In this document: positions 15,070 through 31,811 of the stretch, piece by piece
Layout of the letters: each line of letters starts with the position of its first letter
Numbering within the stretch: position 1 is the first letter of the stretch
Source of the DNA: a virus
Lineage: Duplodnaviria; Heunggongvirae; Uroviricota; Caudoviricetes
Direction: 5' to 3' (one strand)
IMG/VR virus record: IMGVR_UViG_2778261313_000015
DNA: 32,940 nt
The notes under the pieces: model-generated
Databases searched by the model: none
The model's input: the letters and a program-made list of their open reading frames with translations, nothing else
Told to the model about the DNA's origin: nothing
Program-made: the position numbers and the translations under genes

Positions 15070-15072
15070 CCG

Positions 15073-15810: not shown

Positions 15811-15909
15811 CAACCGAATGCGCCCCGCGCCAGGGCGGCACGCCGGTCAGTGAGGGTGAATCACCTGACACTGCACCGGCGTCCACCGCCCGACTTTTCA
15901 GAGGTAGTC

Positions 15910-16419: not shown

Positions 16420-16622
16420 TGAAGACCTTTGCGCTACAGGGCGACACGCTCGACGCCATTTGTGTCCGGTATTACGGGCGCACTGAGGGCGTGGTTGAGA
16501 CCGTGCTCGCCGCAAATCCGGGACTGGCTGAACTGGGTGCGGTGCTGCCACACGGCACCGCCGTCGAACTGCCCGACGTTCAGACCGCGCCCGTGGCTGA
16601 AACTGTCAATCTGTGGGAGTAA
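16419..16622 (+). CDS. X: tail protein X (LysM-like)
   Basis: 67 aa starting MKTFALQGDTLDAICVRYYGRTEG; ATGA overlap with the L stop. Confidence 0.85.
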   Translation: MKTFALQGDTLDAICVRYYGRTEGVVETVLAANPGLAELGAVLPHGTAVELPDVQTAPVAETVNLWE

Positions 16623-16625
16623 CGC

Positions 16626-16907
16626 ATGACAGCAGAAGAAAAAAGCGTCCTGTCGCTTTTCATGATTGGGGTGCTGATTGTTGTCGGCAAGGTGCTTGCC
16701 GGTGGTGAACCCATCACCCCGCGTCTGTTTATCGGGCGCATGTTGCTCGGTGGTTTTGTCTCGATGGTTGCCGGTGTTGTTCTGGTGCAGTTTCCTGACC
16801 TGTCACTGCCTGCAGTGTGCGGTATCGGCTCCATGCTGGGTATCGCCGGTTATCAGGTGATTGAGATTGCCATTCAGCGCCGCTTTAAGGGCAGGGGGAA
16901 ACCGTAA
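16626..16907 (+). CDS. Y: holin
   Basis: 93 aa with hydrophobic transmembrane segments, same length as P2 Y. Confidence 0.85.
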   Translation: MTAEEKSVLSLFMIGVLIVVGKVLAGGEPITPRLFIGRMLLGGFVSMVAGVVLVQFPDLSLPAVCGIGSMLGIAGYQVIEIAIQRRFKGRGKP

Positions 16908-17404
16908 TGCCGGTAATTAACACGCATCAGAATATCGCCGCCTTTCTCGACATGCTGGCCGTGTCCGAAGGGACGGCGAATCATCCGCTGACGAAAAACC
17001 GGGGCTATGACGTGATAGTCACCGGACTGGACGGAAAGCCGGAAATTTTCACCGACTACAGTGACCACCCGTTCGCGCATGGCCGACCGGCGAAGGTGTT
17101 TAACCGTCGCGGTGAAAAATCAACGGCCTCCGGTCGCTATCAGCAGCTTTACCTGTTCTGGCCGCATTACCGCAAACAGCTTGCCCTGCCGGATTTCAGT
17201 CCGTTGTCACAGGACAGGCTCGCCATTCAGTTGATCCGCGAACGCGGTGCACTGGATGACATCCGGGCGGGACGCATTGAGCGCGCCATTTCACGCTGTC
17301 GCAATATCTGGGCGTCCCTGCCGGGTGCCGGTTACGGTCAGCGTGAGCATTCACTGGAAAAACTGGTCACCGTCTGGCGTACCGCTGGCGGCGTACCGGC
17401 TTAA
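16907..17404 (+). CDS. K: endolysin (lysozyme)
   Basis: 165 aa, same length as P2 K. Confidence 0.85.
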   Translation: MPVINTHQNIAAFLDMLAVSEGTANHPLTKNRGYDVIVTGLDGKPEIFTDYSDHPFAHGRPAKVFNRRGEKSTASGRYQQLYLFWPHYRKQLALPDFSPLSQDRLAIQLIRERGALDDIRAGRIERAISRCRNIWASLPGAGYGQREHSLEKLVTVWRTAGGVPA

Positions 17405-17418
17405 ACGGAGTCAACACC

Positions 17419-17844
17419 ATGAAGAAATTATCCCTTTCACTGATGCTGAACGTGTCGCTGGCGCTGATGCTGGCACTGTCCCTGATTTACCCGCAGAGCG
17501 TGGCCGTCAGTTTTGTTGCCACCTGGGCGATTCTGGCGACGGTTATCTGTGTGGTTGCCGGTGGTGTCGGTGTGTATGCCACTGAGTATGTACTGGAACG
17601 CTACGGACGGGAGCTGCAGCCGGAATCGCTGGCCGTGAAGATTGTCACGTCGCTGTTTTTGCAGCCGGTGCCGTGGTGCAGACGGGTGGCGGCTCTGGTG
17701 GTGATGGTGGTGACGTTTATCTCGCTGGTCGCTGCCGGGTGGATTTTTACTGCGCTGATTTATCTTGTGGCGTCGCTGTTTTTCCGGCTGATACGTACGG
17801 CCTGCCGTCAGCGTTTTGAGGGGCGGGAACCATGTCAAAGCTGA
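17419..17844 (+). CDS. lysA: lysis regulatory membrane protein LysA
   Basis: 141 aa, strongly hydrophobic, P2 LysA size. Confidence 0.8.
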   Translation: MKKLSLSLMLNVSLALMLALSLIYPQSVAVSFVATWAILATVICVVAGGVGVYATEYVLERYGRELQPESLAVKIVTSLFLQPVPWCRRVAALVVMVVTFISLVAAGWIFTALIYLVASLFFRLIRTACRQRFEGREPCQS

Positions 17845-18257
17845 TGACTGTGCTGGTTGTGTTGTTATCACTGGCGGTGGCCGGTCTGTTTCTGGTGAAA
17901 CATAAAAATGCCAGCCTGCGCGCCTCGCTGGACAGGGCGAACAACGTCGCCAGTGAACAGCAGACGACTATCACCATGCTGAAAAATCAGCTTCATGTTG
18001 CGCTCACCAGGGCAGACAAAAACGAGCTGGCGCAGGTGGCTCTGCGTCAGGAACTGGAGAACGCCGCGAAGCGTGAAGCACAGCGCGAGAAAACCATCAC
18101 GAGATTACTCAATGAAAACGAAGATTTTCGCCGCTGGTACGGTGCTGACCTGCCTGATGCTGTGCGCCGGTTGCACCAGCGCCCCGCCTGCACTGACGCC
18201 AGTGATTGTCGCCAACGCCTGCCCGAAAGTGAGTCTTTGCCCGATGCCGGGCAGTGA
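17832..18257 (+). CDS. lysB: i-spanin (Rz-like) LysB
   Basis: 141 aa; N-terminal transmembrane segment followed by a coiled-coil-like region. Confidence 0.8.
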   Translation: MSKLMTVLVVLLSLAVAGLFLVKHKNASLRASLDRANNVASEQQTTITMLKNQLHVALTRADKNELAQVALRQELENAAKREAQREKTITRLLNENEDFRRWYGADLPDAVRRLHQRPACTDASDCRQRLPESESLPDAGQ

Positions 18258-18402
18258 CCCGGAGACGAACGGCGATTTAAGTGCCGATATCCGGCAGCTT
18301 GAGAACGCGCTGGCACGCTGTGCCAGCCAGGTAAAAATGATTAAACACTGTCAGGACGAAAACGATGCTCAAACCCGACAGCCTGCGCAGGGCACTGACT
18401 GA
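18112..18402 (+). CDS. lysC: o-spanin lipoprotein (Rz1-like) LysC, embedded out of frame in lysB
   Basis: MKTKIFAAGTVLTCLMLCAGC lipobox signal; 96 aa; overlaps the lysB 3' end and the R 5' end. Confidence 0.75.
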   Translation: MKTKIFAAGTVLTCLMLCAGCTSAPPALTPVIVANACPKVSLCPMPGSDPETNGDLSADIRQLENALARCASQVKMIKHCQDENDAQTRQPAQGTD

Positions 18403-18832
18403 TGCCGTCACGGTGCTGAAAACCAGCCCCGAGATGCTGCGGATATTCGTGGATAACGGGAGTATTGCCTCCACACTGGCGACGTCGCTGTCATTCGAAA
18501 AGCGTTACACGCTCAATGTCATTGTGACCGACTTTACCGGTGATTTTGACCTGCTCATCGTGCCGGTGCTGGCGTGGCTGCGGGAAAATCAGCCCGACAT
18601 CATGACCACCGACGCAGGCCAGAAAAAGGGCTTCACGTTTTATGCAGACATCAACAATGACAGCAGCTTTGATATCAGTATCAGCCTGATGCTGACCGAG
18701 CGCACGCTGGTCAGTGAGGTGGACGGCGCACTGCATGTGAAGAATATCCCGGAACCCACGCCGCCGGAGCCGGTCACCCGCCCGGTGGAGCTTTATATCA
18801 ATGGCGAACTGGTGAGCAAGTGGGATGAATGA
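18365..18832 (+). CDS. R: tail completion protein R
   Basis: 155 aa, same length as P2 R. Confidence 0.85.
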   Translation: MLKPDSLRRALTDAVTVLKTSPEMLRIFVDNGSIASTLATSLSFEKRYTLNVIVTDFTGDFDLLIVPVLAWLRENQPDIMTTDAGQKKGFTFYADINNDSSFDISISLMLTERTLVSEVDGALHVKNIPEPTPPEPVTRPVELYINGELVSKWDE

Positions 18833-19277
18833 GTTTAAGCGTTTTGAAGACCGGCTGAGCGGACTGATTGAATCGCTGTCACCGTCAGGGCGTCGGCGAC
18901 TGAGCGCCGAACTGGCGAAACGTCTGCGGCAGAGTCAGCAGCGTCGGGTGATGGCTCAGAAAGCCCCGGACGGCACACCCTACGCGCCACGCCAGCAGCA
19001 GAGCGCCAGAAAAAAGACTGGTCGTGTTAAGCGAAAAATGTTTGCGAAACTTATCACCAGTCGTTTTTTGCATATCCGCGCCAGCCCGGAACAGGCATCA
19101 ATGGAGTTTTACGGCGGGAAGTCACCGAAAATCGCCAGTGTGCATCAGTTCGGTCTGTCGGAAGAAAACCGGAAAGACGGTAAGAAAATTGATTATCCGG
19201 CGCGTCCCCTGCTCGGCTTTACCGGTGAGGATGTGCAGATGATTGAAGAGATTATTCTGGCGCACCTCGACCGTTAG
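18825..19277 (+). CDS. S: tail completion protein S
   Basis: 150 aa, same length as P2 S. Confidence 0.85.
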   Translation: MNEFKRFEDRLSGLIESLSPSGRRRLSAELAKRLRQSQQRRVMAQKAPDGTPYAPRQQQSARKKTGRVKRKMFAKLITSRFLHIRASPEQASMEFYGGKSPKIASVHQFGLSEENRKDGKKIDYPARPLLGFTGEDVQMIEEIILAHLDR

Positions 19278-19343
19278 TTGTGCCATTCCCGACACCTCAT
19301 CGTCACATTGCCGCCGGTATGACCCGGCGGCATCCTTCCCGTT

Positions 19344-19979
19344 ATGAACACTCTCGCAAATATTCAGGAACTCGCGCGCGCACTGCGCAACATGATTCGT
19401 ACCGGCCTTGTCGTCGAAACCAACCTTAAAGCCGGTCGCTGCCGTGTGCAGACCGGTGGCATGTGCACCGACTGGCTTCAGTGGCTGACCCATCGTGCCG
19501 GACGTTCGCGCACATGGTGGGCACCTTCCGTGGGGGAACAGGTGCTGATTCTGGCTGTGGGTGGTGAACTCGACACGGCGTTCGTTCTGCCGGGGATTTA
19601 TTCCGGCGATAACCCCGCGCCGTCTGCGTCGGCGGATGCCCTGCATATCCGTTTCCCTGACGGGGCGGTGATTGAGTATGAACCCGAAACCAGTTCACTG
19701 ACGGTAAGCGGAATTAAAACGGCCAGCGTGACGGCTTCTGATTTTGTTACTGCCACGGTGCCGGTGGTCACGGTGAAAGCATCAACCCGCGTCACCCTGG
19801 ACACACCAGAGGTGGTCTGCACCAACAGGCTGATTACCGGCACGCTGGAAGTGCAGAAGGGCGGGACGATGCGCGGCAACATTGAACACACCGGCGGTGA
19901 ACTCTCATCAAACGGTAAGGTACTGCATACCCATAAACACCCCGGCGACAGTGGCGGCACAACAGGGGGACCTCTATGA
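19344..19979 (+). CDS. V: baseplate central spike protein V
   Basis: 211 aa, same length as P2 V. Confidence 0.85.
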   Translation: MNTLANIQELARALRNMIRTGLVVETNLKAGRCRVQTGGMCTDWLQWLTHRAGRSRTWWAPSVGEQVLILAVGGELDTAFVLPGIYSGDNPAPSASADALHIRFPDGAVIEYEPETSSLTVSGIKTASVTASDFVTATVPVVTVKASTRVTLDTPEVVCTNRLITGTLEVQKGGTMRGNIEHTGGELSSNGKVLHTHKHPGDSGGTTGGPL

Positions 19980-20323
19980 CAGCGCGTTATCTCGGAATGA
20001 ATCGCAGTGATGGCCTGACTGTCACTGACCTTGAGCATATCAGCCAGAGTATCGGCGATATCCTGCGCACACCGGTCGGCTCACGGGTGATGCGTCGTGA
20101 TTACGGCTCGTTGCTGGCGTCAATGATTGACCAGCCGCAGACCCCGGCGCTTGAGTTGCAGATTAAAGTCGCCTGTTACATGGCAGTGCTGAAATGGGAA
20201 CCCCGCGTCACCCTGTCATCCGTCACCACGGCGCGCAGTTTTGACGGGCGAATGACGGTCACGTTAACCGGCCAGCACAACGACACCGGCCAGCCACTTT
20301 CGTTAACCATCCCTGTGAGTTGA
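19976..20323 (+). CDS. W: baseplate wedge protein W
   Basis: 115 aa, same length as P2 W. Confidence 0.85.
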   Translation: MTARYLGMNRSDGLTVTDLEHISQSIGDILRTPVGSRVMRRDYGSLLASMIDQPQTPALELQIKVACYMAVLKWEPRVTLSSVTTARSFDGRMTVTLTGQHNDTGQPLSLTIPVS

Positions 20324-20327
20324 AACC

Positions 20328-21236
20328 ATGCCGATTATCGACCTGAACCAGCTACCCGCACCGGATGTGGTCGAGGAGCTGGACTTTGAAACCATTCTTG
20401 CCGAACGCAAGGCGACACTGATTTCCCTTTACCCGGAAGACCAGCAGGAGGCGGTCGCCCGTACCCTGACACTGGAATCTGAGCCTCTCGTCAAACTGCT
20501 GGAGGAAAATGCTTATCGTGAGCTTATCTGGCGTCAGCGTGTGAATGAGGCTGCACGGGCGGTGATGCTGGCCTGTGCAGCCGGTAATGACCTTGATGTG
20601 ATTGGTGCCAATTACAACACCACGCGCCTGATTATCACCCCGGCAGATGATTCGACCATCCCGCCGACACCGGCAGTGATGGAATCTGACACGGATTATC
20701 GTCTGCGTATTCAGCAGGCGTTTGAAGGTTTAAGCGTCGCCGGGTCGGTGGGTGCCTATCAGTATCATGGTCGCAGTGCTGACGGGCGTGTCGCGGATAT
20801 CTCTGTCACCAGTCCGTCTCCGGCCTGCGTCACCATCTCTGTGCTGTCACGTGAGAATAACGGTGTCGCATCCGAAGACCTGCTGGCGGTGGTGCGTAAC
20901 GCCCTGAATGGCGAGGACGTCAGGCCGGTGGCCGACCGCGTGACCGTGCAGTCTGCCGCCATCGTTGAATACCAGATAAATGCCACGCTTTACCTTTACC
21001 CTGGCCCCGAAAGCGAACCCATCCGCGCTGCCGCCGTGAAAAAACTGGAAGCGTATATCACGGCACAGCACCGGCTGGGGCGCGACATCCGACTGTCTGC
21101 CATTTATGCCGCTTTGCATGTGGAAGGCGTGCAGCGTGTCGAACTGGCTGCACCGCTGGCCGACATCGTGCTCAACAATACGCAGGCGTCTTTCTGTACC
21201 GAATACAGCGTCGTGACCGGAGGCTCGGATGAGTGA
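20328..21236 (+). CDS. J: baseplate wedge protein J
   Basis: 302 aa, same length as P2 J. Confidence 0.85.
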   Translation: MPIIDLNQLPAPDVVEELDFETILAERKATLISLYPEDQQEAVARTLTLESEPLVKLLEENAYRELIWRQRVNEAARAVMLACAAGNDLDVIGANYNTTRLIITPADDSTIPPTPAVMESDTDYRLRIQQAFEGLSVAGSVGAYQYHGRSADGRVADISVTSPSPACVTISVLSRENNGVASEDLLAVVRNALNGEDVRPVADRVTVQSAAIVEYQINATLYLYPGPESEPIRAAAVKKLEAYITAQHRLGRDIRLSAIYAALHVEGVQRVELAAPLADIVLNNTQASFCTEYSVVTGGSDE

Positions 21237-21840
21237 TTCGCGACTGCTGCCGACCGGCTCATCACCGCTTGAAGTCGCTGCCGCAAAAGCCTGTGCGGAA
21301 ATTGAAAAAACGCCGGTCAGTATTCGTGAGCTGTGGAACCCGGACACCTGCCCGGCAAATCTGCTGCCGTGGCTGGCGTGGTCATTTTCGGTTGACCGCT
21401 GGGATGATAAGTGGCCGGAAGCGACAAAACGCGCTGTTATCCGCGATGCGTATTTCATTCACTGCCATAAGGGCACTATTGGTGCGATTCGCCGTGTGGT
21501 GGAGCCGCTCGGCTATCTGATTGAGGTGAGGGAGTGGTGGCAGCTCAACGAGGAGCCGGGGACGTTCCGCATCGTTGTTGGCGTGCTTGAGCAGGGTATT
21601 ACCGAGGAAATGTATCAGGAGCTGGAGCGTCTCGTTGCTGATGCAAAACCTGCAAGCCGCCATCTGACGGGACTGGCTATCAGTTTAAGTACAACCGGCA
21701 ACATTTTTGCCGGTGCGGGATGCTATCACGGCGACGCCCTGACGGTTTATCCCTACACCCCGGAGGCCATTATTGTCGGAGGGGATTATTTCCCGGCCTC
21801 GGCCATTCATTTAATTGATAACCTGAGAGTAAACGCATGA
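21229..21840 (+). CDS. I: baseplate protein I
   Basis: 203 aa; position between J and H. Confidence 0.8.
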   Translation: MSDSRLLPTGSSPLEVAAAKACAEIEKTPVSIRELWNPDTCPANLLPWLAWSFSVDRWDDKWPEATKRAVIRDAYFIHCHKGTIGAIRRVVEPLGYLIEVREWWQLNEEPGTFRIVVGVLEQGITEEMYQELERLVADAKPASRHLTGLAISLSTTGNIFAGAGCYHGDALTVYPYTPEAIIVGGDYFPASAIHLIDNLRVNA

Positions 21841-23129
21841 CAGTGAAATACTACGCCATTCTGACTAATCAGGGCGCAGCACGGCTGGCTAACGCGACGA
21901 TGCTCGGCAGTAAGCTGAATCTGACGCAAATGGCCGTTGGTGATGCGAATGGTGTCTTGCCGACACCAGACCCGGCACAGACAAAACTGATTAACCAGAA
22001 ACGTATCGCGCCGCTGAATCTTCTGAGTGTTGACCCGAACAACCAGAGCCAGATTATTGCGGAGCAAATCATCCCTGAGAACGAGGGCGGATTCTGGATC
22101 CGTGAGATTGGGCTTTATGATGATGAAGGCGTACTCATTGCGGTGGCGAACTGCCCGGAAACGTACAAACCGCAGTTGCAGGAAGGCAGCGGTCGTACCC
22201 AGACTATCCGCATGATTCTGGTTGTCACGAATACCGAAGCTATTACGCTGAAAATCGACCCGTCGGTGGTACTGGCGACCCGTAAATACGTGGATGATGA
22301 AGTCCTGGAATTAAGGCTGTATGTGGATGACCAGATGAGAAACCACATTGCCGCACAGGACCCTCATACCCAGTATGCACAGAAACATAATCCGACATTT
22401 ACCGGAGAACCAAAAGCGCCGACGCCTGCCGCAGGAAATAACACCACGCGGATTGCGACCACTGCGTTTGTACAGGCCGCTATTACCGCTCTGATTAACG
22501 GTGCCCCTGACACGCTGGACACACTGAAAGAAATTGCCGCAGCTATCAACAATGACCCGAAATTCAGCGCCACCATTAACAATGCGCTGTCAGGTAAGCA
22601 GCCACTGGATGAGACGCTGACTCATTTGAGTGGAAAGGATGTAGCTGGTCTTCTCGCATACCTTGGTTTGGGAGAAGGTTCGGCATTACCCGTTGGTGTG
22701 CCTGTTCCGTGGCCTTCAGCCACACCGCCTACTGGCTGGCTGAAATGCAACGGTGCGGCTTTTTCTGCTGAAGAATACCCGGAACTGGCAAAGGTTTATC
22801 CGACAAATAAATTGCCTGATTTACGCGGTGAATTTATTCGTGGCTGGGATGACGGACGTGGAGTGGATGCCGGGCGACAATTATTATCTTCACAGGGGGA
22901 TGCAATAAGAAATATTGAGGGATTCGCAGATGGCGGGATCGGTATGTCTTTTGATGCAATCAGAGGGGCTTTTTACGATGCAGGAACACGATCAGCGAGA
23001 ATGCCGAATAACACAACTACTATAGACAAAACCGATGACCTTGGATTCGACGCCTCTCGTGTCGTGCCAACAGCTAATGAAAACCGTCCACGTAACATCG
23101 CCTTTAATTATATTGTGAGGGCTGCATAA
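21837..23129 (+). CDS. H: tail fibre protein H (constant N-terminal part plus the currently expressed variable C-terminus)
   Basis: 430 aa; conserved tail-fibre N-terminus MTVKYYAILTNQGAARLANA; a recombination site lies inside the ORF at about 22651-22677. Confidence 0.85.
   Translation: MTVKYYAILTNQGAARLANATMLGSKLNLTQMAVGDANGVLPTPDPAQTKLINQKRIAPLNLLSVDPNNQSQIIAEQIIPENEGGFWIREIGLYDDEGVLIAVANCPETYKPQLQEGSGRTQTIRMILVVTNTEAITLKIDPSVVLATRKYVDDEVLELRLYVDDQMRNHIAAQDPHTQYAQKHNPTFTGEPKAPTPAAGNNTTRIATTAFVQAAITALINGAPDTLDTLKEIAAAINNDPKFSATINNALSGKQPLDETLTHLSGKDVAGLLAYLGLGEGSALPVGVPVPWPSATPPTGWLKCNGAAFSAEEYPELAKVYPTNKLPDLRGEFIRGWDDGRGVDAGRQLLSSQGDAIRNIEGFADGGIGMSFDAIRGAFYDAGTRSARMPNNTTTIDKTDDLGFDASRVVPTANENRPRNIAFNYIVRAA
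22651..22677. repeat. left crossover site of the invertible segment (gix/hix-like), inside H
   Basis: TTCTCGCATACCTTGGTTTGGGAGAAG; the 15-bp TTGGTTTGGGAGAAG is repeated in inverse orientation at 24464-24478. Confidence 0.65.
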
Positions 23130-23722
23130 TGAAACCTGTTTTTGATGAAAATGGGCTGGCTACAGTGCCGGGTGATATGCGTTGTTTTTATTATGATGCA
23201 GTAACGTATGAATATACGGGCTGGTCTGATGAATATATTAATACTGGTGTAAGTATGCCCGCCTGTTCCACTGGTATTGACCCGGGCGAAAACATTCCGG
23301 GAAAAGTGGCAGTATTTACGGGTAAGGGATGGAGCCATGAAGAAGACCATCGCAATGAGACTGTTTACTCAACAGAAAATGGTGCAGCTGTTACAGTGGA
23401 TTATATCGGTGCCATCAAAGACGGTTATGTCACGCTTTCACCGTTAACGCCATATGATAAATGGGATGGTGAGAAATGGGTGACCGATACTGAGGCACAG
23501 CATAGCGCCGCAGTAGACGCGGCAGAAGCACAGCGTCAGTCACTGATTGATGCTGCAATGGCTTCCATCAGTCTGATTCAGCTGAAATTGCAGGCCGCAC
23601 GTAAACTGACGCAGGCAGAAACAACCAGACTTAACGCCGTGCTGGATTACATTGACGCGGTGACGGCAACAGATACCAGCACCGCGCCGGATGTCATCTG
23701 GCCTGAACTGCCGGAGGCGTAG
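23129..23722 (+). CDS. G: tail fibre assembly chaperone G
   Basis: 197 aa; C-terminal Tfa signature ...DYIDAVTATDTSTAPDVIWPELPEA. Confidence 0.8.
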   Translation: MKPVFDENGLATVPGDMRCFYYDAVTYEYTGWSDEYINTGVSMPACSTGIDPGENIPGKVAVFTGKGWSHEEDHRNETVYSTENGAAVTVDYIGAIKDGYVTLSPLTPYDKWDGEKWVTDTEAQHSAAVDAAEAQRQSLIDAAMASISLIQLKLQAARKLTQAETTRLNAVLDYIDAVTATDTSTAPDVIWPELPEA

Positions 23723-24113
23723 GCCATTCAATATCTGGAGCACTGGAGGTATCAACCAGTTCCAGTGCGTCCAGATAATCCAGCCACAAATTATATTGCG
23801 CCAGTTCCTCACCTTTCAGACGACCAATAGCCGCTTTACCAGGCCATTGCCTGCTGTTCATGTGCTCGTTGGCTTCATTAATAAGTTTTCCTTTTTTCAA
23901 CTCTGCCAATGCAATAAGGTTTTCTTTTGATAAAGGTGGTTGCTCTGTCAAAACCGGATATCCCTCCTGATTGCTGACTATTTTCATGCCATTATCCTGA
24001 CCATCCAGTAGTGACAGCCATTCATCCGTGGTTATCTCAACAGCATCTGAAGGTGCTTTATTTAAATCGGTAAAAAAACCATTTTCTTTTTGTGAATAGA
24101 AGTATCTGTCCAT
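23694..24113 (-). CDS. alternative tail fibre assembly chaperone (inverted copy, G')
   Basis: 139 aa; C-terminus ...DYLDALELVDTSSAPDIEWPTPPA parallels G; convergent with G and overlapping it. Confidence 0.75.
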   Translation of the reverse strand: MDRYFYSQKENGFFTDLNKAPSDAVEITTDEWLSLLDGQDNGMKIVSNQEGYPVLTEQPPLSKENLIALAELKKGKLINEANEHMNSRQWPGKAAIGRLKGEELAQYNLWLDYLDALELVDTSSAPDIEWPTPPAVQAR

Positions 24114-24116
24114 TTA

Positions 24117-24477
24117 TCAATCTCCAAAAGCAATCCAGTAAGCAAAAGGATTTATTCCTTGCTCAGTCACAGATGACATCAGGGAAAATTGCGATGATGA
24201 AACAGGTAATGCTGCAAAACTAACCATTGTTGACACACCTGACCGTGCATTATCGTACGATGCAACAACACAATAATTGGTATTGCTGAAAGATATCGGC
24301 AGGGTGATATTTACAGGTGAGCCTAATGGCCCTGATGCTGATATTCCCATTTGAATGATGGTTCCATCAGGCAATTTTCTCCAGCGATTAGAACTCGGAT
24401 TTCTTTTCCAGGCTGACATATCCGGTATCTGATTTTCTCCTGTACCCACATCCCTTTTCGCCGCTTCTCCCAAACCA
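24117..24477 (-). CDS. alternative tail-fibre C-terminal cassette (Hv'); has no independent 5' end in this orientation and would be fused to H after inversion
   Basis: Minus-strand reading frame continues through the right crossover site; ...GLGEAAKRDVGTGENQ... parallels the H junction ...GLGEGSALPVGVP... Confidence 0.65.
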
Positions 24478-24490
24478 ACGTTTATGAAAA
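24464..24490. repeat. right crossover site of the invertible segment (gix/hix-like)
   Basis: CTTCTCCCAAACCAACGTTTATGAAAA; inverted copy of the site inside H; about 55 bp upstream of the invertase gene. Confidence 0.65.
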
Positions 24491-24545
24491 TGCAGAGATA
24501 ACGGGCAAGTGGCATCATCTCCGGTTTTTATTCAGGGGGATGCTC

Positions 24546-25139
24546 ATGCTTATTGGCTATGTACGCGTGTCAACAAATGACCAGAACACGGAATTGCAGC
24601 GTAACGCGCTGGAGTGCGCAGGATGCGAGCGGATTTTTGAGGATAAAATCAGCGGCACGAAGTCCGACAGACCGGGACTGAAAAAACTGCTCAGAACATT
24701 ATCAGCAGGTGACACTCTGGTAGTCTGGAAGCTGGACAGGCTGGGGCGTAGTATGCGGCATCTGGTCATTCTGGTTGAGGAACTGCGCGAACGCGGCGTT
24801 AATTTTCGCAGTCTGACGGATGCTATTGATACCAGCACGCCGATGGGGCGTTTTTTCTTTCATGTGATGGGTGCCCTGGCTGAAATGGAGCGAGAACTCA
24901 TTGTCGAGCGGACACGCGCCGGACTGGAAGCGGCCAGAGCTAAAGGTCGTATTGGTGGCAGACGTCCGAAGCTCACCGCGAGTGAGTGGGAACAGGCAGG
25001 ACGGTTGCTGGCTGCGGGTGAATCACGTCAACGCGTGGCGCTGATTTTTGATATTGGCCTGTCCACGCTCTATAAAAAATTCCCCTCATCAGCGACAAAG
25101 AATAAATTGTGTCATCACTTAGCCAACCGGGACAAATAG
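24546..25139 (+). CDS. serine recombinase, DNA invertase (Hin/Gin/Cin/Pin family)
   Basis: N-terminal catalytic motif MLIGYVRVSTNDQ (serine nucleophile); resolvase-type catalytic domain; C-terminal HTH; AGGGGGA RBS. Confidence 0.9.
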   Translation: MLIGYVRVSTNDQNTELQRNALECAGCERIFEDKISGTKSDRPGLKKLLRTLSAGDTLVVWKLDRLGRSMRHLVILVEELRERGVNFRSLTDAIDTSTPMGRFFFHVMGALAEMERELIVERTRAGLEAARAKGRIGGRRPKLTASEWEQAGRLLAAGESRQRVALIFDIGLSTLYKKFPSSATKNKLCHHLANRDK

Positions 25140-25198
25140 CCTGACATCTCCGGCACAACTGAAAATACCACTCACCCATTAACCACGGAGTTAAACGG

Positions 25199-26389
25199 AT
25201 GAGTGACTATCATCACGGCGTGCAGGTGCTGGAGATTAACGACGGCACCCGCGTCATTTCCACCGTATCCACCGCCATTGTCGGCATGGTCTGCACGGCC
25301 AGCGATGCGGATGCGGAAATCTTCCCCCTCAATAAACCGGTGCTGATTACCAATGTGCAGAGCGCAATTGCAAAGGCCGGTAAAAAAGGCACGCTGGCGG
25401 CGTCGTTGCAGGCCATCGCTGACCAGTCAAAACCGGTCACCGTAGTCGTGCGTGTGGAAGACGGCACCGGCGACGACGAAGAAACGAAACTCGCGCAGAC
25501 TGTTTCCAATATCATCGGTACCACCGACGAAAACGGTCAGTACACCGGACTGAAAGCCCTGCTGGCGGCGGAGTCGGTAACCGGTGTTAAACCGCGTATT
25601 CTCGGTGTGCCGGGACTGGACACCAAAGAGGTGGCTGTTGCACTGGCATCAGTCTGTCAGAAGCTGCGCGCTTTCGGGTATATCAGCGCATGGGGCTGTA
25701 AAACCATTTCCGAGGTGAAAGCCTACCGCCAGAATTTCAGCCAGCGTGAGCTGATGGTCATCTGGCCGGATTTCCTCGCATGGGATACGGTCACCAGTAC
25801 CACCTCCACCGCGTATGCCACCGCCCGTGCGCTGGGTCTGCGCGCTAAAATCGACCAGGAGCAGGGCTGGCATAAAACGCTGTCCAACGTCGGGGTGAAC
25901 GGTGTTACCGGCATCAGCGCATCTGTATTCTGGGATTTGCAGGAGTCCGGCACCGATGCTGACCTGCTGAACGAGGCAGGTGTCACTACGCTGATTCGCC
26001 GCGACGGTTTCCGATTCTGGGGTAACCGTACCTGCTCTGATGACCCGCTGTTCCTTTTTGAAAACTACACCCGCACCGCGCAGGTGCTGGCCGACACGAT
26101 GGCTGAGGCGCACATGTGGGCGGTGGACAAGCCCATCACCACAACGCTGATTCGCGACATCGTTGACGGCATTAATGCCAAATTCCGTGAGCTGAAAACA
26201 AACGGCTATATCGTGGATGCGACCTGCTGGTTCAGCGAAGAATCCAACGATGCGGAAACCCTCAAGGCCGGAAAACTGTATATCGACTATGACTATACCC
26301 CGGTGCCTCCTCTCGAAAACCTGACCCTGCGCCAGCGTATTACCGATAAATACCTGGCAAATCTGGTCACTTCGGTTAACAGCAATTAA
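25199..26389 (+). CDS. FI: tail sheath protein
   Basis: 396 aa, same length as P2 FI. Confidence 0.9.
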   Translation: MSDYHHGVQVLEINDGTRVISTVSTAIVGMVCTASDADAEIFPLNKPVLITNVQSAIAKAGKKGTLAASLQAIADQSKPVTVVVRVEDGTGDDEETKLAQTVSNIIGTTDENGQYTGLKALLAAESVTGVKPRILGVPGLDTKEVAVALASVCQKLRAFGYISAWGCKTISEVKAYRQNFSQRELMVIWPDFLAWDTVTSTTSTAYATARALGLRAKIDQEQGWHKTLSNVGVNGVTGISASVFWDLQESGTDADLLNEAGVTTLIRRDGFRFWGNRTCSDDPLFLFENYTRTAQVLADTMAEAHMWAVDKPITTTLIRDIVDGINAKFRELKTNGYIVDATCWFSEESNDAETLKAGKLYIDYDYTPVPPLENLTLRQRITDKYLANLVTSVNSN

Positions 26390-26401
26390 GGAGCCTGACC
26401 G

Positions 26402-26920
26402 ATGGCAATGCCGCGCAAACTCAAGTTAATGAACGTCTTTCTGAACGGCTACAGCTATCAGGGCGTCGCGAAGTCCGTCACGCTACCAAAACTGACCCGT
26501 AAGCTCGAAAACTATCGCGGTGCGGGAATGAACGGCAGCGCACCGGTAGACCTCGGCCTTGATGACGATGCGCTGTCAATGGAGTGGTCGCTCGGTGGCT
26601 TCCCGGATTCGGTTATCTGGGAGCTTTACGCCGCAACCGGTGTGGATGCCGTGCCGATTCGTTTTGCAGGCTCTTACCAGCGCGACGATACCGGCGAAAC
26701 GGTGGCCGTCGAAGTGGTCATGCGTGGACGTCAGAAAGAAATCGACACCGGCGAGGGTAAACAGGGAGAAGACACCGAGTCGAAAATCTCCGTGGTCTGC
26801 ACCTATTTCCGGCTGACGATGGACGGCAAGGAGCTGGTCGAAATCGACACCATCAACATGATTGAGAAGGTGAACGGCGTCGACCGGCTGGAGCAACACC
26901 GCCGAAATATCGGCCTGTGA
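26402..26920 (+). CDS. FII: tail tube protein
   Basis: 172 aa, same length as P2 FII. Confidence 0.9.
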   Translation: MAMPRKLKLMNVFLNGYSYQGVAKSVTLPKLTRKLENYRGAGMNGSAPVDLGLDDDALSMEWSLGGFPDSVIWELYAATGVDAVPIRFAGSYQRDDTGETVAVEVVMRGRQKEIDTGEGKQGEDTESKISVVCTYFRLTMDGKELVEIDTINMIEKVNGVDRLEQHRRNIGL

Positions 26921-26930
26921 TTTTCATCCG

Positions 26931-26951
26931 GTCAGCCTGGCTGACCGGTTA
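26931..26951 (+). terminator. perfect palindrome CCGGTCAGCC/GGCTGACCGG after FII (possible attenuator; weak U tract)
   Basis: 10-bp stem directly downstream of the FII stop; no strong T-run follows. Confidence 0.3.
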
Positions 26952-26976
26952 ACCCTGATTCAGAAGTGAGAAAACC

Positions 26977-27252
26977 ATGAACAAAGAAAATGTGATTACC
27001 CTGGACAATCCGGTCAAGCGTGGTGAGCAGGTTATCGAACAGGTCACGCTGATGAAACCCAATGCCGGGACGCTGCGCGGTGTCAGTCTGGCTGCGGTCG
27101 CGAACTCTGAAGTCGATGCACTGATTAAGGTGCTGCCGCGCATGACGGCACCGATGCTGACCGAGCAGGAAGTCGCCGCGCTGGAACTGCCTGACCTTGT
27201 GGCGCTGGCCGGTAAGGTGGTCGGTTTTTTGTCGCCGAACTCGGTGCAGTGA
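26977..27252 (+). CDS. E: tail assembly chaperone E
   Basis: 91 aa, same length as P2 E; ends just after a GGTTTTTTG slippery run. Confidence 0.85.
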   Translation: MNKENVITLDNPVKRGEQVIEQVTLMKPNAGTLRGVSLAAVANSEVDALIKVLPRMTAPMLTEQEVAALELPDLVALAGKVVGFLSPNSVQ

Positions 27253-27404
27253 CGTTTCCGAAAAATCTCTCGGTCGATGACCTGATGGCAGATGTGGCTG
27301 TGATATTTCACTGGCCGCCATCAGAACTGTATCCCATGAGCCTGACCGAACTCATCACATGGCGCGAAAAGGCGCTCCGGCGAAGCGGAAACACGAATGA
27401 GTAA
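26977..27404 (+). CDS. tail assembly chaperone E+E' (predicted -1 programmed frameshift product)
   Basis: Slippery heptamer T6-G at about 27226-27232; the -1 frame stays open for 57 codons (VAELGAVTFPKNLSVDDLMADVAVIFHWPPSELYPMSLTELITWREKALRRSGNTNE) and stops at 27402-27404, overlapping the T start. Confidence 0.7.
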
Positions 27405-29844
27405 CAATGTAAAATTACAGGTATTGCTCAGGGCTGTTGACCAGGCATCCCGCCCGTTTAAATCCATCCGTACAGCGAGCGAGTCGCTGTCGGGGGATAT
27501 CCGGGAAACACAAAAATCACTGCGCGAGCTGAACGGTCAGGCGTCCCGTATTGAGGGATTTCGCAAGACCAGTGCGCAGCTCGCCGTGACTGGTCATGCA
27601 CTTGAAAAGGCTCGGCAGGAAGCCGAAGCACTTGCCACACAGTTTAAAAACACCGAACGTCCGACCCGTGCTCAGGCGAAAGTGCTGGAATCCGCAAAGC
27701 GTGCGGCGGAGGACTTACAGGCGAAATATAACCGCCTGACGGATTCCGTTAAGCGCCAGCAGCGGGAACTGGCCGCTGTGGGAATTAATACCCGCAATCT
27801 TGCACATGATGAGCAGGGGCTGAAAAACCGTATCAGTGAAACCACCGCACAGCTTAACCGTCAGCGCGACGCACTGGCGCGTGTCAGTGCACAACAGGCA
27901 AAACTTAACGCAGTAAAACAGCGTTATCAGGCCGGAAAGGAACTGGCAGGAAATATGGCCTCAGTGGGCGCTGCCGGTGTGGGGATTGCTGCTGCGGGAA
28001 CGATGGCCGGTGTTAAGCTGCTGATGCCCGGTTATGAGTTTGCGCAGAAAAACTCAGAATTGCAGGCTGTGCTCGGTGTGGCAAAAGACTCCGCCGAAAT
28101 GGCCGCATTACGCAAACAGGCGCGCCAGCTCGGCGACAATACCGCCGCCTCGGCAGATGATGCAGCCGGTGCGCAGATTATTATTGCGAAAGCCGGTGGG
28201 GATGTTGATGCCATTCAGGCGGCAACGCCGGTCACGCTGAACATGGCGCTGGCGAACCGCCGCACGATGGAAGAAAACGCCGCCCTGCTGATGGGGATGA
28301 AATCCGCCTTTCAGCTTTCAAACGATAAGGTCGCTCATATCGGGGATGTTCTCTCCATGACGATGAACAAAACCGCCGCCGATTTTGACGGCATGAGCGA
28401 TGCGCTGACCTATGCCGCACCTGTGGCAAAAAATGCCGGTGTCAGCATTGAAGAAACCGCCGCAATGGTCGGGGCGCTGCATGATGCAAAAATTACAGGC
28501 TCAATGGCGGGGACGGGAAGCCGTGCCGTGTTAAGTCGCCTGCAGGCACCGACGGGAAAAGCATGGGATGCACTCAAAGAGCTTGGCGTGAAAACCTCAG
28601 ACAGCAAGGGAAACACCCGGCCAATATTTACCATTCTGAAAGAAATGCAGGCCAGTTTTGAGAAAAACCGGCTCGGTACTGCCCAGCAGGCTGAATACAT
28701 GAAAACTATTTTCGGGGAGGAGGCCAGCTCAGCCGCCGCCGTGCTGATGACTGCCGCCTCAACCGGAAAGCTGGACAAACTGACCGCTGCGTTTAAAGCC
28801 TCAGACGGGAAGACTGCCGAGCTGGTAAATATCATGCAGGACAACCTCGGCGGTGACTTTAAGGAGTTTCAGTCCGCTTATGAGGCGGTGGGGACAGACC
28901 TGTTTGACCAGCAGGAAGGCGCACTGCGTAAGCTCACACAGACGGCCACAAAGTATGTGTTAAAACTCGACGGCTGGATCCAGAAAAACAAATCACTGGC
29001 GTCAACCATTGGCATCATTGCCGGTGGCGCGCTGGCGCTTACTGGCATCATCGGTGCAATTGGTCTTGTAGCCTGGCCGGTTATCACTGGCATCAATGCC
29101 ATCATCGCGGCAGCAGGCGCAATGGGGGCAGTCTTCACGACGGTTGGCAGTGCTGTTATGACGGCCATCGGGGCGATTAGCTGGCCGGTTGTGGCCGTGG
29201 TGGCCGCCATTGTCGCCGGGGCGTTGCTTATCCGTAAATACTGGGAGCCTGTCAGCGCATTCTTTGGCGGTGTGGTGGAAGGGCTGAAAGCGGCATTTGC
29301 GCCGGTGGGGGAACTGTTCACGCCACTTAAGCCGGTGTTTGACTGGCTGGGCGAAAAGTTACAGGCCGCGTGGCAGTGGTTTAAAAACCTGATTGCCCCG
29401 GTCAAAGCCACCCAGGACACCCTGAACCGTTGCCGTGACACGGGCGTCATGTTCGGGCAGGCACTGGCTGACGCGCTGATGCTGCCGCTTAATGCGTTCA
29501 ACAAACTGCGCGGCGGTATTGACTGGGTACTGGAAAAACTCGGCGTCATCAACAAAGAGTCAGGCACGCTTGACCAGACTGCCGCCAGAACTCATGCCGC
29601 CACGTATGGCACCGGTGGTTATATTCCGGCGACCAGCTCTTATGCTGGCTATCAGGCTTATCAGCCAGTTACGGCACCGGCTGGCCGCTCTTATGTGGAC
29701 CAGAGTAAAAACGAATATCACATCAACCTGACGGGCGGTACTGCGCAGGGGACACAGCTCGACCGCCAGTTACAGGATGCGCTCGAAAAATACGAGCGGG
29801 ATAAACGTGCGCGCACCCGTGCCAGCATGATGCATGACGGTTAA
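27397..29844 (+). CDS. T: tail tape measure protein
   Basis: 815 aa, same length as P2 T; Ala/Gly-rich hydrophobic central segment. Confidence 0.9.
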   Translation: MSNNVKLQVLLRAVDQASRPFKSIRTASESLSGDIRETQKSLRELNGQASRIEGFRKTSAQLAVTGHALEKARQEAEALATQFKNTERPTRAQAKVLESAKRAAEDLQAKYNRLTDSVKRQQRELAAVGINTRNLAHDEQGLKNRISETTAQLNRQRDALARVSAQQAKLNAVKQRYQAGKELAGNMASVGAAGVGIAAAGTMAGVKLLMPGYEFAQKNSELQAVLGVAKDSAEMAALRKQARQLGDNTAASADDAAGAQIIIAKAGGDVDAIQAATPVTLNMALANRRTMEENAALLMGMKSAFQLSNDKVAHIGDVLSMTMNKTAADFDGMSDALTYAAPVAKNAGVSIEETAAMVGALHDAKITGSMAGTGSRAVLSRLQAPTGKAWDALKELGVKTSDSKGNTRPIFTILKEMQASFEKNRLGTAQQAEYMKTIFGEEASSAAAVLMTAASTGKLDKLTAAFKASDGKTAELVNIMQDNLGGDFKEFQSAYEAVGTDLFDQQEGALRKLTQTATKYVLKLDGWIQKNKSLASTIGIIAGGALALTGIIGAIGLVAWPVITGINAIIAAAGAMGAVFTTVGSAVMTAIGAISWPVVAVVAAIVAGALLIRKYWEPVSAFFGGVVEGLKAAFAPVGELFTPLKPVFDWLGEKLQAAWQWFKNLIAPVKATQDTLNRCRDTGVMFGQALADALMLPLNAFNKLRGGIDWVLEKLGVINKESGTLDQTAARTHAATYGTGGYIPATSSYAGYQAYQPVTAPAGRSYVDQSKNEYHINLTGGTAQGTQLDRQLQDALEKYERDKRARTRASMMHDG

Positions 29845-29858
29845 GGAGGTGACGAAAA

Positions 29859-30338
29859 ATGATGCTCGCGTTAGGTATGTTTGTTTTTATGCGCCAGACG
29901 CTGCCACACCAGACCATGCAGCGTGAATCAGATTATCGCTGGCCGTCAAATTCCTGTATCGGTAAACGGGATGCCTTTCAGTTTCTCGGTGTGGGTGAGG
30001 AAAACATTACGCTTGCAGGCGTGCTTTATCCCGAACTGACCGGCGGGAAGCTGACGATGACCACGCTCAGGCTGATGGCAGAGGAAGGCCGGGCGTGGCC
30101 GTTGCTGGATGGCACCGGCATGATTTACGGCATGTATGTCATCAGCAGGGTGAGTGAAACAGGGAGTATTTTCTTTGCAGACGGCACACCCAGAAAAATT
30201 GATTTTACGCTGTCGCTCACCCGCGTTGATGAATCACTGGCCGCGCTTTATGGCGATATCGGTAAACAGGCGGAATCGCTCATCGGTAAGGCTGGCAGTA
30301 TGGCGACCAGATTCACGGGTATGATGGGGGCGGGATAA
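29859..30338 (+). CDS. U: tail protein U
   Basis: 159 aa, same length as P2 U. Confidence 0.85.
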   Translation: MMLALGMFVFMRQTLPHQTMQRESDYRWPSNSCIGKRDAFQFLGVGEENITLAGVLYPELTGGKLTMTTLRLMAEEGRAWPLLDGTGMIYGMYVISRVSETGSIFFADGTPRKIDFTLSLTRVDESLAALYGDIGKQAESLIGKAGSMATRFTGMMGAG

Positions 30339-31501
30339 TGCTGGATGCGCTGACATTTGATGCAGGCAGTACGCTGACGCCGGATTACATGCTGATGCTC
30401 GACAGCAGGGATATTACCGGCAATATCAGCGACCGTCTGATGAGCATGACCCTGACAGATAACCGGGGCTTTGAGGCTGACCAGCTTGATATTGAACTGA
30501 ACGATGCCGACGGGCAGGTCGGGCTGCCGGTTCGTGGCGCTGTCCTGACGGTGTATATCGGCTGGAAAGGTTTTGCCCTGGTATGCAAAGGGAAATTTAC
30601 CGTTGATGAGGTTGAACACCGGGGCGCACCGGATGTGGTCACCATCCGCGCCCGGAGTGCAGATTTTCGCGGGACGCTCAATTCCCGCCGGGAAGGCTCC
30701 TGGCATGACACCACGCTCGGTGCGATTGTTGAGGCGATAGCCACCCGTAACAGGCTGGAAGCCAGTGTCGCTCCGTCACTGGCCGGAATTAAAATCCCGC
30801 ACATCGACCAGTCGCAGGAGTCCGATGTGAAATTCCTGACCCGTCTTGCTGAACGCAACGGCGGCGAGGTGTCGGTAAAAATGGGAAAACTGTTGTTTCT
30901 CAAAGCGGGGCAGGGGGTGACGGCCAGCGGTAAAAAAATCCCGCAGGTCACCATAACCCGCAGCGACGGCGACCGCCATCATTTTGCGATTGCTGACCGT
31001 GGAGCCTATACCGGCGTAACGGCAAAGTGGTTACACACCAAAGACCCGAAACCACAAAAGCAGAAGGTAAAACTGAAACGCAAAAAGAAAGAAAAACACC
31101 TGCGCGCACTGGAGCACCCGAAAGCAAAACCGGTCACGCAGAAGAAAGCGCCAAAAGTACCGGAAGCGCGCGAAGGTGAATACATGGCCGGTGAGGCTGA
31201 CAACGTTTTTGCCCTGACTACGGTATATGCCACGAAAGCGCAGGCCATGCGCGCCGCTCAGGCGAAGTGGGATAAACTGCAACGGGGTGTGGCGGAGTTC
31301 TCCATCAGTCTGGCTACCGGTCGGGCAGATATTTACACGGAAACGCCGGTCAGAGTGTCAGGCTTTAAGCGCGTCATAGACGAGCAGGACTGGACAATCA
31401 CTAAGGTGACACATTTTCTGAATAATAGCGGCTTCACGACGTCCCTGGAGCTTGAGGTAAGGCTTTCTGATGTGGAGTACGAAACAGAAGATGATGAGTG
31501 A
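30338..31501 (+). CDS. D: tail protein D (late control gene D)
   Basis: 387 aa, same length as P2 D. Confidence 0.85.
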   Translation: MLDALTFDAGSTLTPDYMLMLDSRDITGNISDRLMSMTLTDNRGFEADQLDIELNDADGQVGLPVRGAVLTVYIGWKGFALVCKGKFTVDEVEHRGAPDVVTIRARSADFRGTLNSRREGSWHDTTLGAIVEAIATRNRLEASVAPSLAGIKIPHIDQSQESDVKFLTRLAERNGGEVSVKMGKLLFLKAGQGVTASGKKIPQVTITRSDGDRHHFAIADRGAYTGVTAKWLHTKDPKPQKQKVKLKRKKKEKHLRALEHPKAKPVTQKKAPKVPEAREGEYMAGEADNVFALTTVYATKAQAMRAAQAKWDKLQRGVAEFSISLATGRADIYTETPVRVSGFKRVIDEQDWTITKVTHFLNNSGFTTSLELEVRLSDVEYETEDDE

Positions 31502-31582
31502 TGTTTTTATTTTATCTGTTTGTTTTATAAGGATAAATTAACTAAAATGGCACCATCAACAAAACCGGAAAAGGTGCTCGCG

Positions 31583-31801: not shown

Positions 31802-31811
31802 TCACAAAAAT

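Follow-up and report, generated by a model that had tools for sequence, protein, structure and literature searches.

Introduction

Hin, Gin, Cin and Pin are serine DNA invertases of about 190 amino acids (aa), with a catalytic serine near residue 9-10. In the Mu G/Gin and P1 C/Cin systems, Sc and Sv are fused at a 26-bp crossover site, a chaperone gene follows each Sv, and the invertase gene, which contains an enhancer in its 5' end, is located just outside the invertible segment. The Hin/hix system of Salmonella also consists of a recombinase of the DNA-invertase subclass and 26-bp sites. The P segment of E. coli K-12 element e14, which is served by PinE (Plasterk and van de Putte 1985, as cited in PMC4272514), has the order constant fibre part, Sv, tfa, tfa', Sv', invertase, with the four genes from Sv to Sv' forming the segment (stfP-tfaP / tfaE-stfE / pinE). 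Invertible fibre segments with Pin-like invertases have been shown experimentally in P2-like prophages (PMC4272514), and surveys of the Z/fun hotspot also mention this arrangement (bioRxiv 10.1101/2024.10.15.618418). Switches of this kind are therefore already known, and are common in E. coli prophages.

The window analysed here is the whole stretch of 32,940 nucleotides of phage DNA, and it contains a P2-type prophage with a locus of the Hin/Gin/Cin/Pin family that is very likely a functional tail-fibre switch with two states. Its layout agrees with the Mu G / P1 C / e14 P architecture that was claimed in a sequence-only reading of this DNA. As judged from the sequences, the closest type is Pin of e14, because the invertases are 86% identical and the right crossover site is identical at 26/26 positions. 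The gene order of e14 is the same as that of the window, and tfaP and tfaE of e14 also overlap by 29 nt. However, the element e14, which is lambdoid, is defective and has a short remnant of a fibre, whereas the switch of the window is located within an apparently complete P2-type tail operon, and the silent gp53-like tip of the window is only 30% identical to the StfP tip. The switch differs from those of Mu and P1 in the size of the segment (1.8 kb, as compared to 3.0 kb for Mu and 4.2 kb for P1), from that of Mu in the central dinucleotide (TT/AA instead of GA/TC), and from that of P1 in the location of cin, which adjoins the opposite end of the segment. The variable cassettes of Mu and P1 do not match those of the window in BLASTP searches with E-value limits of 1e-3 and 1e-2. 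The likeness to Hin, which is drawn from its description, does not extend to the outcome of inversion, because Hin flips a promoter, whereas the element of the window swaps coding cassettes by in-frame fusion.

The P2-like loci of EPEC E2348/69 and of invertase-bearing P2-like phages in GenBank (such as KC618326, pro483 and S164) are located, like the switch of the window, between the fibre genes and FI, with the same order of Hv, tfa, tfa', gp53-like cassette, invertase and sheath. Between EPEC and the window, the invertases share 81% identity and the 26-bp sites are homologous. However, the EPEC copy is a prophage remnant without the constant part of H, and its cassettes differ in sequence from those of the window, with patches of 75-93% DNA identity. 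Three repeats and four variants are present in another P2-like prophage of EPEC, as compared to only two sites in the window.

Crossover sites

The window contains two exact copies of the sequence TTGGTTTGGGAGAAG, one on the plus strand at 22663-22677 and one on the minus strand at 24464-24478, and the repeat can be extended to 27 nt with 81% complementarity. An exact repeat as short as this might be a chance match, with the minus-strand open reading frames between the copies not being genes. However, two matches to TTGGTTTGGGAGAAG are found in none of 100 dinucleotide-preserving shuffles, even when two mismatches are tolerated, both minus-strand frames give strong Pfam matches as described below, and the arrangement recurs in many genomes. 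An origin by chance is thus rejected.

The 15-nt repeat represents the inner part of two 26-bp crossover sites of the Hin family, which are imperfectly palindromic, inverted relative to each other and provided with matching central dinucleotides, as in other members of this family. The left site, which is pix-like, is located at 22651-22676 and reads TTCTCGCATACC-TT-GGTTTGGGAGAA, with the central TT at 22663-22664. The right site is located at 24465-24490 and reads TTCTCCCAAACC AA CGTTTATGAAAA, with the central AA at 24477-24478; when read in reverse, it is TTTTCATAAACG-TT-GGTTTGGGAGAA. The left site matches the left e14 site at 23/26 positions and P1 cixR at 21/26 positions. The e14 site to which the right site is fully identical is the one that adjoins pinE.

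When additional half-sites (AAACCNNGGTTT with up to two mismatches) were loosely searched for, 20 were found as compared to 15.3 expected, and none was above chance. This result argues against a multi-site shufflon and indicates that the switch has two states.

Genes and cassettes of the invertible segment

The tail-fibre gene H (21837-23129, plus strand) encodes a 430-aa protein with an N-terminal Phage_tail_fib domain and a Collar domain, and is divided by the left crossover site. The constant part, Hc, consists of codons 1-276 (21837-22664, plus strand) and lies outside the segment. Its residues 1-150 match PF12571 Phage_tail_fib (1.5e-62), and its identity amounts to 41-44% with P2 H and to 61-73% with part of P1 S. 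The variable C-terminus that is expressed at present, Hv(on), consists of 154 aa of Collar type (22665-23129, plus strand; PF07484 Collar, 1.6e-14). It is 60% identical to the product of the e14 stfE pseudogene, and its DNA is about 91% identical to HK97 stf, with the similarity starting at the crossover site. Hv(on) is followed by G (23129-23722, plus strand), a TfaE-like assembly chaperone for Hv(on) that matches PF02413 Caudo_TAP (1.1e-26) and is 64% identical to e14 TfaE.

The other half of the segment is encoded by the minus strand. The alternative chaperone gene tfa' (23694-24113, minus strand; PF02413 Caudo_TAP, 2.3e-26), the 3' end of which overlaps that of G by 29 nt and which is silent in the present orientation, encodes a TfaP-like protein with 55% identity to e14 TfaP. 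The alternative C-terminus of H, Hv'(off), consists of 119 aa (24117-24476, minus strand; PF21882 Gp53-like_C, 7.5e-14) and lacks a separate start codon within the segment. A scan with the sigma-70 consensus detects no promoter upstream of this silent cassette. The 133-aa 'gp53-like' gene that is reported by automatic pipelines is this cassette with a spurious N-terminus. NCBIfam assigns none of the five proteins of the locus to a specific family.

When the segment is inverted in silico, Hv' joins Hc in frame to give an H' protein of 395 aa. This predicted protein is identical at 387 of its 395 residues to the annotated H of strain B7A, in which the segment is in the flipped orientation. Thus, a constant fibre N-terminus can be joined in frame to either of two C-termini, each with its own chaperone, as is characteristic of this family. 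The sequence-only reading had placed an exact 15-bp inverted repeat at the positions given above, Hv and G on the plus strand and a chaperone with an alternative H C-terminus on the minus strand between its copies, a fusion of H at a GLGE junction after inversion, and a Hin-family invertase just downstream of the segment. These structural claims are all confirmed: the repeat is exact and non-random, the genes are as claimed and have fitting Pfam domains, H is divided at the GLGE junction, the fusion is in frame, and the invertase is described below.

Serine invertase and putative enhancer

The invertase gene (24546-25139, plus strand) encodes a protein of 197 aa that matches Resolvase (8e-53) and HTH_7 (1e-12). 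An alternative in-frame ATG start is present at 24540, and the stop codon is at 25137-25139. The protein shares 86.4% identity with PinE, 78.0% with Cin and 77.0% with Gin, and its residues 1-182 match the Gin structures 3UJ3 and 4M6F (1e-94). The catalytic serine, Ser9, is located within the motif YVRVSTNDQ. The protein is thus a small serine recombinase with an N-terminal catalytic domain and a C-terminal helix-turn-helix, as are the other invertases of this family. Searches of NCBIfam with the invertase give below-cutoff matches only, to other serine recombinases. The gene is on the same strand as H and G, directly downstream of them, and abuts the promoter pF.

A putative recombinational enhancer is located at 24568-24630, within the 5'-terminal part of the invertase coding sequence. 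Matches to a strict Fis motif, GNNYRWWWWWYRNNC with at least 12 of 15 positions matching, are inconsistent across the four invertase genes, and this motif was replaced by the classic degenerate Fis consensus, KNNYRNNWNNYRNNM, in combination with a spacing test. Two 15-mers, at 24568-24582 and 24616-24630 (+23 and +71 of the gene), fit this consensus. The two are spaced by 48 bp from centre to centre, and the distance between the right site and the nearer of them, again measured between centres, is 97.5 bp. A pair of 15-mers with such spacing is present in only 15 of 5000 shuffles, and pinE, cin and gin contain matching 15-mers at equivalent positions, within the enhancer annotated in the P1 record (+19..+90). 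The hin enhancer as published is similarly 65 bp long, with a Fis site at each end, and about 100 bp from the nearest site. At the sequence level, the two Fis-type sites thus correspond to the cis-acting enhancer of this family, which has two Fis sites spaced by about 48 bp and usually lies near the start of the invertase gene.

The identity at third codon positions shows no consistent excess in the enhancer stretch over the rest of the invertase gene (16/24 vs 73/130 for pinE, 11/24 vs 42/130 for cin, and 9/24 vs 62/130 for gin). Third-codon conservation does not single out the enhancer, and its assignment therefore relies on position, motif and homology.

P2 context and the replaced block

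In BLASTN comparison with P2 (NC_001895), the window shows 95-98% identity over 2347-6351, 9915-19279, 19344-21665 and 25119-31891, in P2 order, and thus across the early, head, lysis and tail modules. Apart from the switch region, the prophage is of P2 type and apparently complete. The homology ends inside gene I (21665) and resumes inside the activator site of pF (25119), indicating that the whole block from the C-terminus of I through H and G to fun(Z) has been replaced. The P2-type late promoter pF of the FI operon, as mapped from P2, is located at 25102-25173 (plus strand), with the activator site at 25102-25130 and the transcription start at 25173; it delimits the replaced block on the right. 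Downstream of the invertase gene, the gene for the tail sheath, FI, starts at 25199.

Classical P2 has H, G and fun(Z) between I and FI, where the switch is located. However, it has an H of 669 aa, lacks an invertase and a second cassette, and contains only a relic gix-like sequence inside H, which is 23/26 identical to Mu gixL. The sequence-only reading had described the switch as cargo that replaces Z/fun at the second hotspot of P2. The part of this claim that the reference P2 is without the switch stands, but cargo added at the Z/fun hotspot does not agree with the homology breaks: the sequence comparison indicates that the whole tail-fibre module of P2 is replaced together with fun(Z), and not only Z/fun.

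Inversion in related prophages

The sequence-only reading proposed that both orientations be looked for. Among complete E. coli genomes with this locus, 30 have the segment in the orientation of the window and 17 have it flipped. In two pairs of loci, L003/L004 and L005/L006, the flanks of 4.7-4.8 kb are identical, without a single SNP, and the segments are exact reverse complements of each other with no mismatches, while Hc is unchanged in place. The natural breakpoints are confined to 7 nt (TTGGTTT at the left site), which include the central TT. Thus, both orientations are present in near-identical relatives of this prophage, with breakpoints at the centres of the sites. Published data agree with these results. 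Inversion in a P2-like prophage of EPEC E2348/69 has been verified by PCR (Goldberg et al. 2014, PMC4272514), the endpoints published for EPEC coincide with the central dinucleotides of the sites that are homologous to those of the window, and sequencing-based quantification of the EPEC locus compared here, NC_011601.1 2977580-2979467, gives 93 +/- 4% forward orientation (PMC4272514).

Inverted repeats can in principle permit homologous inversion, and assemblies choose one orientation from a mixed population, so that the differences in orientation might be due to RecA-type recombination between the repeats or to assembly artefacts. However, the repeats share only 15 nt of identity, the independent pairs break in the same 7-nt interval that holds the central dinucleotide, and a dedicated invertase with canonical sites adjoins the segment. 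In addition, PCR on single colonies has confirmed coexisting orientations both for e14 and for the EPEC P2-like locus with three repeats (PMC4272514), and the EPEC quantification mentioned above likewise argues against this explanation, which is extremely improbable.

It might also be that this prophage carries a switch with an intact sequence that is nevertheless frozen, with the invertase either unexpressed or inactivated by two private substitutions. Upstream of the invertase gene, a scan with the sigma-70 consensus detects no promoter, two residues (151 and 191, or 184 and 191) distinguish the protein from the invertases of the naturally flipped pairs, and the two closest relatives in the database, H1 and H2, which are 99% identical, are in the same orientation as the window. 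However, the substitutions are in the C-terminal part, which is itself variable among Gin, Cin and Pin, and the invertase frame, the catalytic serine, the two crossover sites and the pair of Fis-type sites have remained intact. The left site is the same as those of L002, L004, L006 and B7A, the right site is the same as those of L001, L003 and L005, and the rest of the prophage looks complete, with its 95-98% identity to P2. A frozen switch is therefore very unlikely, and this particular copy presumably inverts as well.

Discussion

The working switch proposed here would operate as follows. Invertase dimers would bind both 26-bp sites and, assisted by host Fis bound to the enhancer within the invertase gene, would cut both sites at the central TT/AA by means of Ser9. 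One pair of subunits would then rotate by 180 degrees, and religation would leave the 1812-bp segment inverted. The Fis dependence and the cleavage chemistry are assigned by analogy with the family, in which inversion depends on Fis and on DNA supercoiling, and may apply here. With the segment as it is now, the late transcript of the V operon would encode Hc-Hv (430 aa, with a Collar-type tip), followed by the chaperone G. In the flipped orientation, it would encode Hc-Hv' (395 aa, with a gp53-like tip), followed by the chaperone encoded by tfa'. A population of lysogens would thereby release two kinds of virions with different receptor-binding tips. The membership in this family and the difference between the Collar-type and gp53-like tip domains suggest a change in host range between the orientations, and the tip swap probably changes which bacteria the phage attaches to.

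The homology of the HK97 side tail fibre starts exactly at a 22/26 relic site. This relic site and that of P2 raise the possibility that the crossover site also serves as a portable junction, at which new fibre-tip-plus-chaperone cassettes are captured from unrelated phages, either through invertases or through recombination at relic sites. The position of the invertase gene, on the H-G strand, directly downstream and abutting pF, is such that late-operon read-through could couple flipping to lytic growth. This extended role is speculative, and we consider it rather doubtful.

The finding adds little to general biology. Its useful by-product is a natural demonstration of inversion, in which isogenic pairs with SNP-free flanks confine the crossover to 7 nt. 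For the annotation of this prophage, it means that the tail fibre has two alternative tips, and that the induced phage is probably of mixed host range.

Gene organization and crossover sites

The 32,940-bp window contains exactly two copies of the 15-mer TTGGTTTGGGAGAAG, at 22663-22677 (+) and 24464-24478 (−), as the sequence-only reading had claimed for an inverted 15-bp repeat, and two matches to it are found in 0 of 100 dinucleotide-preserving shuffles, even when two mismatches are tolerated. The inverted pair is lengthened by a repeat finder to 27 nt with 81% complementarity. When it is read at the base level, it consists of two 26-bp sites like those of the Hin family, each with 12-nt half-sites around a 2-nt centre. 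The left site (22651-22676) is TTCTCGCATACC-TT-GGTTTGGGAGAA and the right site (24465-24490), in reverse reading, is TTTTCATAAACG-TT-GGTTTGGGAGAA; the two sites share their inner half-site, whereas their outer half-sites have diverged. On the plus strand the central dinucleotides are TT (left) and AA (right), which corresponds to an inverted orientation. A loose search for extra half-sites gives 20 matches versus 15.3 expected, which is the chance level, and the element is therefore one of two sites and two states.

According to the ORF list and a Pfam scan, the tail-fibre gene H (21837-23129, +; 430 aa; Phage_tail_fib N-terminal domain, 1.5e-62; Collar, 1.6e-14) is followed by the chaperone gene G (23129-23722, +; Caudo_TAP, 1.1e-26). 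The minus strand encodes a second chaperone, tfa' (23694-24113; Caudo_TAP, 2.3e-26), and an alternative fibre C-terminus, Hv' (24117-24476; Gp53-like_C, 7.5e-14). A serine recombinase gene (24546-25139, +; Resolvase, 8e-53; HTH_7, 1e-12) and the tail sheath gene FI (from 25199, +) lie further downstream. The left site is contained in H codons 272-280 (…LLAYLGLGE…). When the 1812-bp segment bounded by the central dinucleotides is flipped in silico, the reading frame is kept, and H becomes a 395-aa protein, …LLAYLGLGE joined to AAKRDVGTGENQIPDMSAW…, with the gp53-like domain at its end, followed by the second chaperone. The fusion at the GLGE junction that had been expected from sequence is thereby reproduced, and it is in frame.

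The silent cassette is automatically annotated as a 133-aa ORF, the first 14 codons of which come from outside the invertible segment (N-terminus MMPLARYLCIFINV…, encoded at 24477-24518, −), and no promoter-like site is found for this ORF. The RefSeq pipelines present the cassette as a free-standing 'gp53-like domain-containing protein' or 'phage tail protein' in two fetched E. coli relatives (L001, 6335-6736; L002, OkiPb01691, 6185-6736). This free-standing gene is an annotation artefact that varies with orientation.

Recombinase and cassettes

The window recombinase is 86.4% identical to PinE of e14 (E. coli K-12), 78.0% identical to Cin of P1 and 77.0% identical to Gin of Mu, and is aligned with them without gaps up to the last few C-terminal residues. 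The catalytic serine is kept (Ser9, YVRVSTNDQ), and residues 1-182 match the Gin crystal structures 3UJ3 and 4M6F (E = 1e-94). The e14 site adjoining pinE is identical (26/26) to the right site, while the left site is matched at 23/26 by the other e14 site and at 21/26 by P1 cixR. The cassettes too are e14-like, with identities of 64% between G and TfaE, 55% between the second chaperone and TfaP, and 60% between the expressed tip and the stfE product; for the silent gp53-like tip and the StfP tip the value is just 30%. In both elements the chaperone genes overlap by 29 nt, tail to tail. The interpretation of this region as a fibre switch is supported, but is refined to the e14/Pin type by the identity to PinE and the fully matching right site.

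Inversion in relatives

When 21837-25139 is compared by megablast with 5,426 complete E. coli genomes, 30 genomes carry the window orientation at a query coverage of at least 80%, and 17 carry the flipped orientation when the query is flipped in silico. Three pairs of relatives were fetched and compared. In two of them (APEC E19025 versus APEC E14033, and 12089 versus 12867), the left flank of ~4.8 kb and the right flank of 4.7 kb contain 0 SNP, and the internal block is an exact reverse complement with 0 mismatch. OkiPb01707 and OkiPb01691 differ in the same manner, save one base. The sixth base of the inner half-site (position 20 in the left site, with its mirror in the right) is polymorphic, A or G, and in two pairs the allele is carried along by the segment, whereas the diverged outer half-sites remain with the flanks. 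The exchange is thereby bounded to the 7 nt TTGGTTT, central TT included. OkiPb01691 has G at both sites, and the A allele is therefore lost there; over 11.4 kb, a single A/G base is its sole difference from another fetched relative (L006). The window sites are identical to those of the flipped pairs, and the window invertase differs from theirs at just two residues. In B7A, which has the flipped orientation, an annotated 395-aa protein is identical at 387/395 positions to the predicted fusion H'.

Coexisting orientations in single-colony cultures have been detected by paired-end sequencing at e14 and two P2-like prophages of EPEC E2348/69, with PCR confirmation for e14 and a three-repeat P2-like locus (Goldberg et al., Genome Med 2014, PMC4272514). 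Table S1 of that paper lists a P2 locus at NC_011601.1 2977580-2979467, with the repeat printed as 'TTGTTTGGGAGAAG' and 93 ± 4% forward (PMC4272514). This locus, when fetched, has the architecture of the window (tip, chaperone, chaperone', gp53-like cassette, invertase and sheath gene), with an invertase 81% identical to that of the window. Its homologous 26-bp sites are located at 2977568-2977593 and 2979454-2979479, which puts the published endpoints right on the central dinucleotides. An invertase is also annotated in several GenBank P2-like phages, including KC618326, pro483 and S164.

Relation to P2 and HK97

BLASTN against P2 (NC_001895) gives 95-98% identity in P2 order at 2347-6351, 9915-19279, 19344-21665 and 25119-31891. 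The homology ends within gene I (P2 12629) and restarts at P2 17572, in the part of the late promoter pF where the activator binds. A 3.45-kb block (21665-25119) therefore replaces 4.9 kb of P2, namely the last part of I together with H (669 aa), G and fun(Z). The sequence-only reading, in which the switch replaces Z/fun, is correct as to position, but not in regarding it as cargo merely added, since the whole fibre module is exchanged. It rightly held that classical P2 lacks the switch: the reference P2 has neither an invertase nor a second cassette.

P2 H nevertheless contains a relic crossover-like sequence, TTATCGAATATCTCGGTTTACAGGAA (13857-13882; 23/26 to Mu gixL), at ~codon 379 (…EYLGLQETV…), though P2 has no invertase. 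The pF activator-binding site maps to 25102-25130, with an inferred transcription start downstream at 25173. It is overlapped by the last dozen codons and stop (25137-25139) of the invertase gene, and the invertase extends further at its C-terminus than Pin and Cin, this extension being partly coded by promoter DNA that P2 shares. At 19279-19344, the non-essential P2 gene orf30 (P2 9439-10224) is absent, leaving ~65 bp between the S and V homology blocks.

In HK97 (NC_002167), which has no invertase, the side-tail-fibre gene retains at 595-620 a sequence, CTCGCACAAACCTTGGTTTGGGAGAA, that matches the crossover site at 22/26 positions and is a relic of it. The DNA homology of HK97 to the window (~91%) starts exactly at this relic (window 22651-22676), indicating that the site is a boundary of horizontal module exchange.

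The other P2 hotspot (old/tin in P2; 6385-9886) holds different cargo: a 391-aa ORF (6582-7757, +), the N-terminus of which matches PADLOC PD-Lambda-5_A (3e-19) and which has no Pfam match, a 318-aa ORF (7760-8716, +) that matches nothing, and a gene for a C5 cytosine DNA methyltransferase (8724-9731, −; PF00145, 2e-59). These genes may form a module for defence or one resembling restriction-modification. The integrase gene occupies 1-1191 (−), the first base of the window being at its stop codon. P2 homology ends at 31891, and the host-type cation-efflux gene in which the window ends (Cation_efflux and ZT_dimer, FieF-like; 32020-32940, +) lies just beyond, which places the right prophage-host junction within the window.

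Putative enhancer and probable mechanism of inversion

In the P1 record, the Cin enhancer is annotated at +19 to +90 of cin. The four invertase genes are gap-free relative to each other across this stretch, and all four contain 15-mers at +23 and +71 that fit KNNYRNNWNNYRNNM, which we take from the classical literature to be a degenerate Fis consensus. In the window these are TGTCAACAAATGACC (24568-24582) and GCGCAGGATGCGAGC (24616-24630), with centres 48 bp apart and the nearer one 97.5 bp from the right-site centre. Such a pair is found within the first 120 nt in 15 of 5000 shuffles of the invertase gene, and the whole window contains three such pairs, this one included. The geometry of the window pair matches that of the hin enhancer described by the Johnson laboratory, which is 65 bp long and ~100 bp from hixL, with terminal Fis sites whose centres are separated by 47 bp (PMC3798978). 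Third-codon-position identity over this stretch is not consistently higher than in the remainder of the invertase gene. By position, motif and homology, this region is a putative enhancer.

The window switch most likely follows the mechanism of the very well-studied family to which it belongs. Invertase dimers would bind each of the two sites, and enhancer-bound Fis would assemble an invertasome on supercoiled DNA; Ser9 would then make double-strand cuts at the TT/AA centres with a 2-nt stagger, one subunit pair would rotate by 180 degrees and the ends would be religated (PMC3798978). The late V-operon transcript would encode either the constant part of H with the expressed tip (Hc-Hv) and G, or Hc-Hv' and tfa'. 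Elements of this kind have already been described and are common in E. coli; the window copy is probably active and Fis-dependent, and its inversion would probably change the host range.
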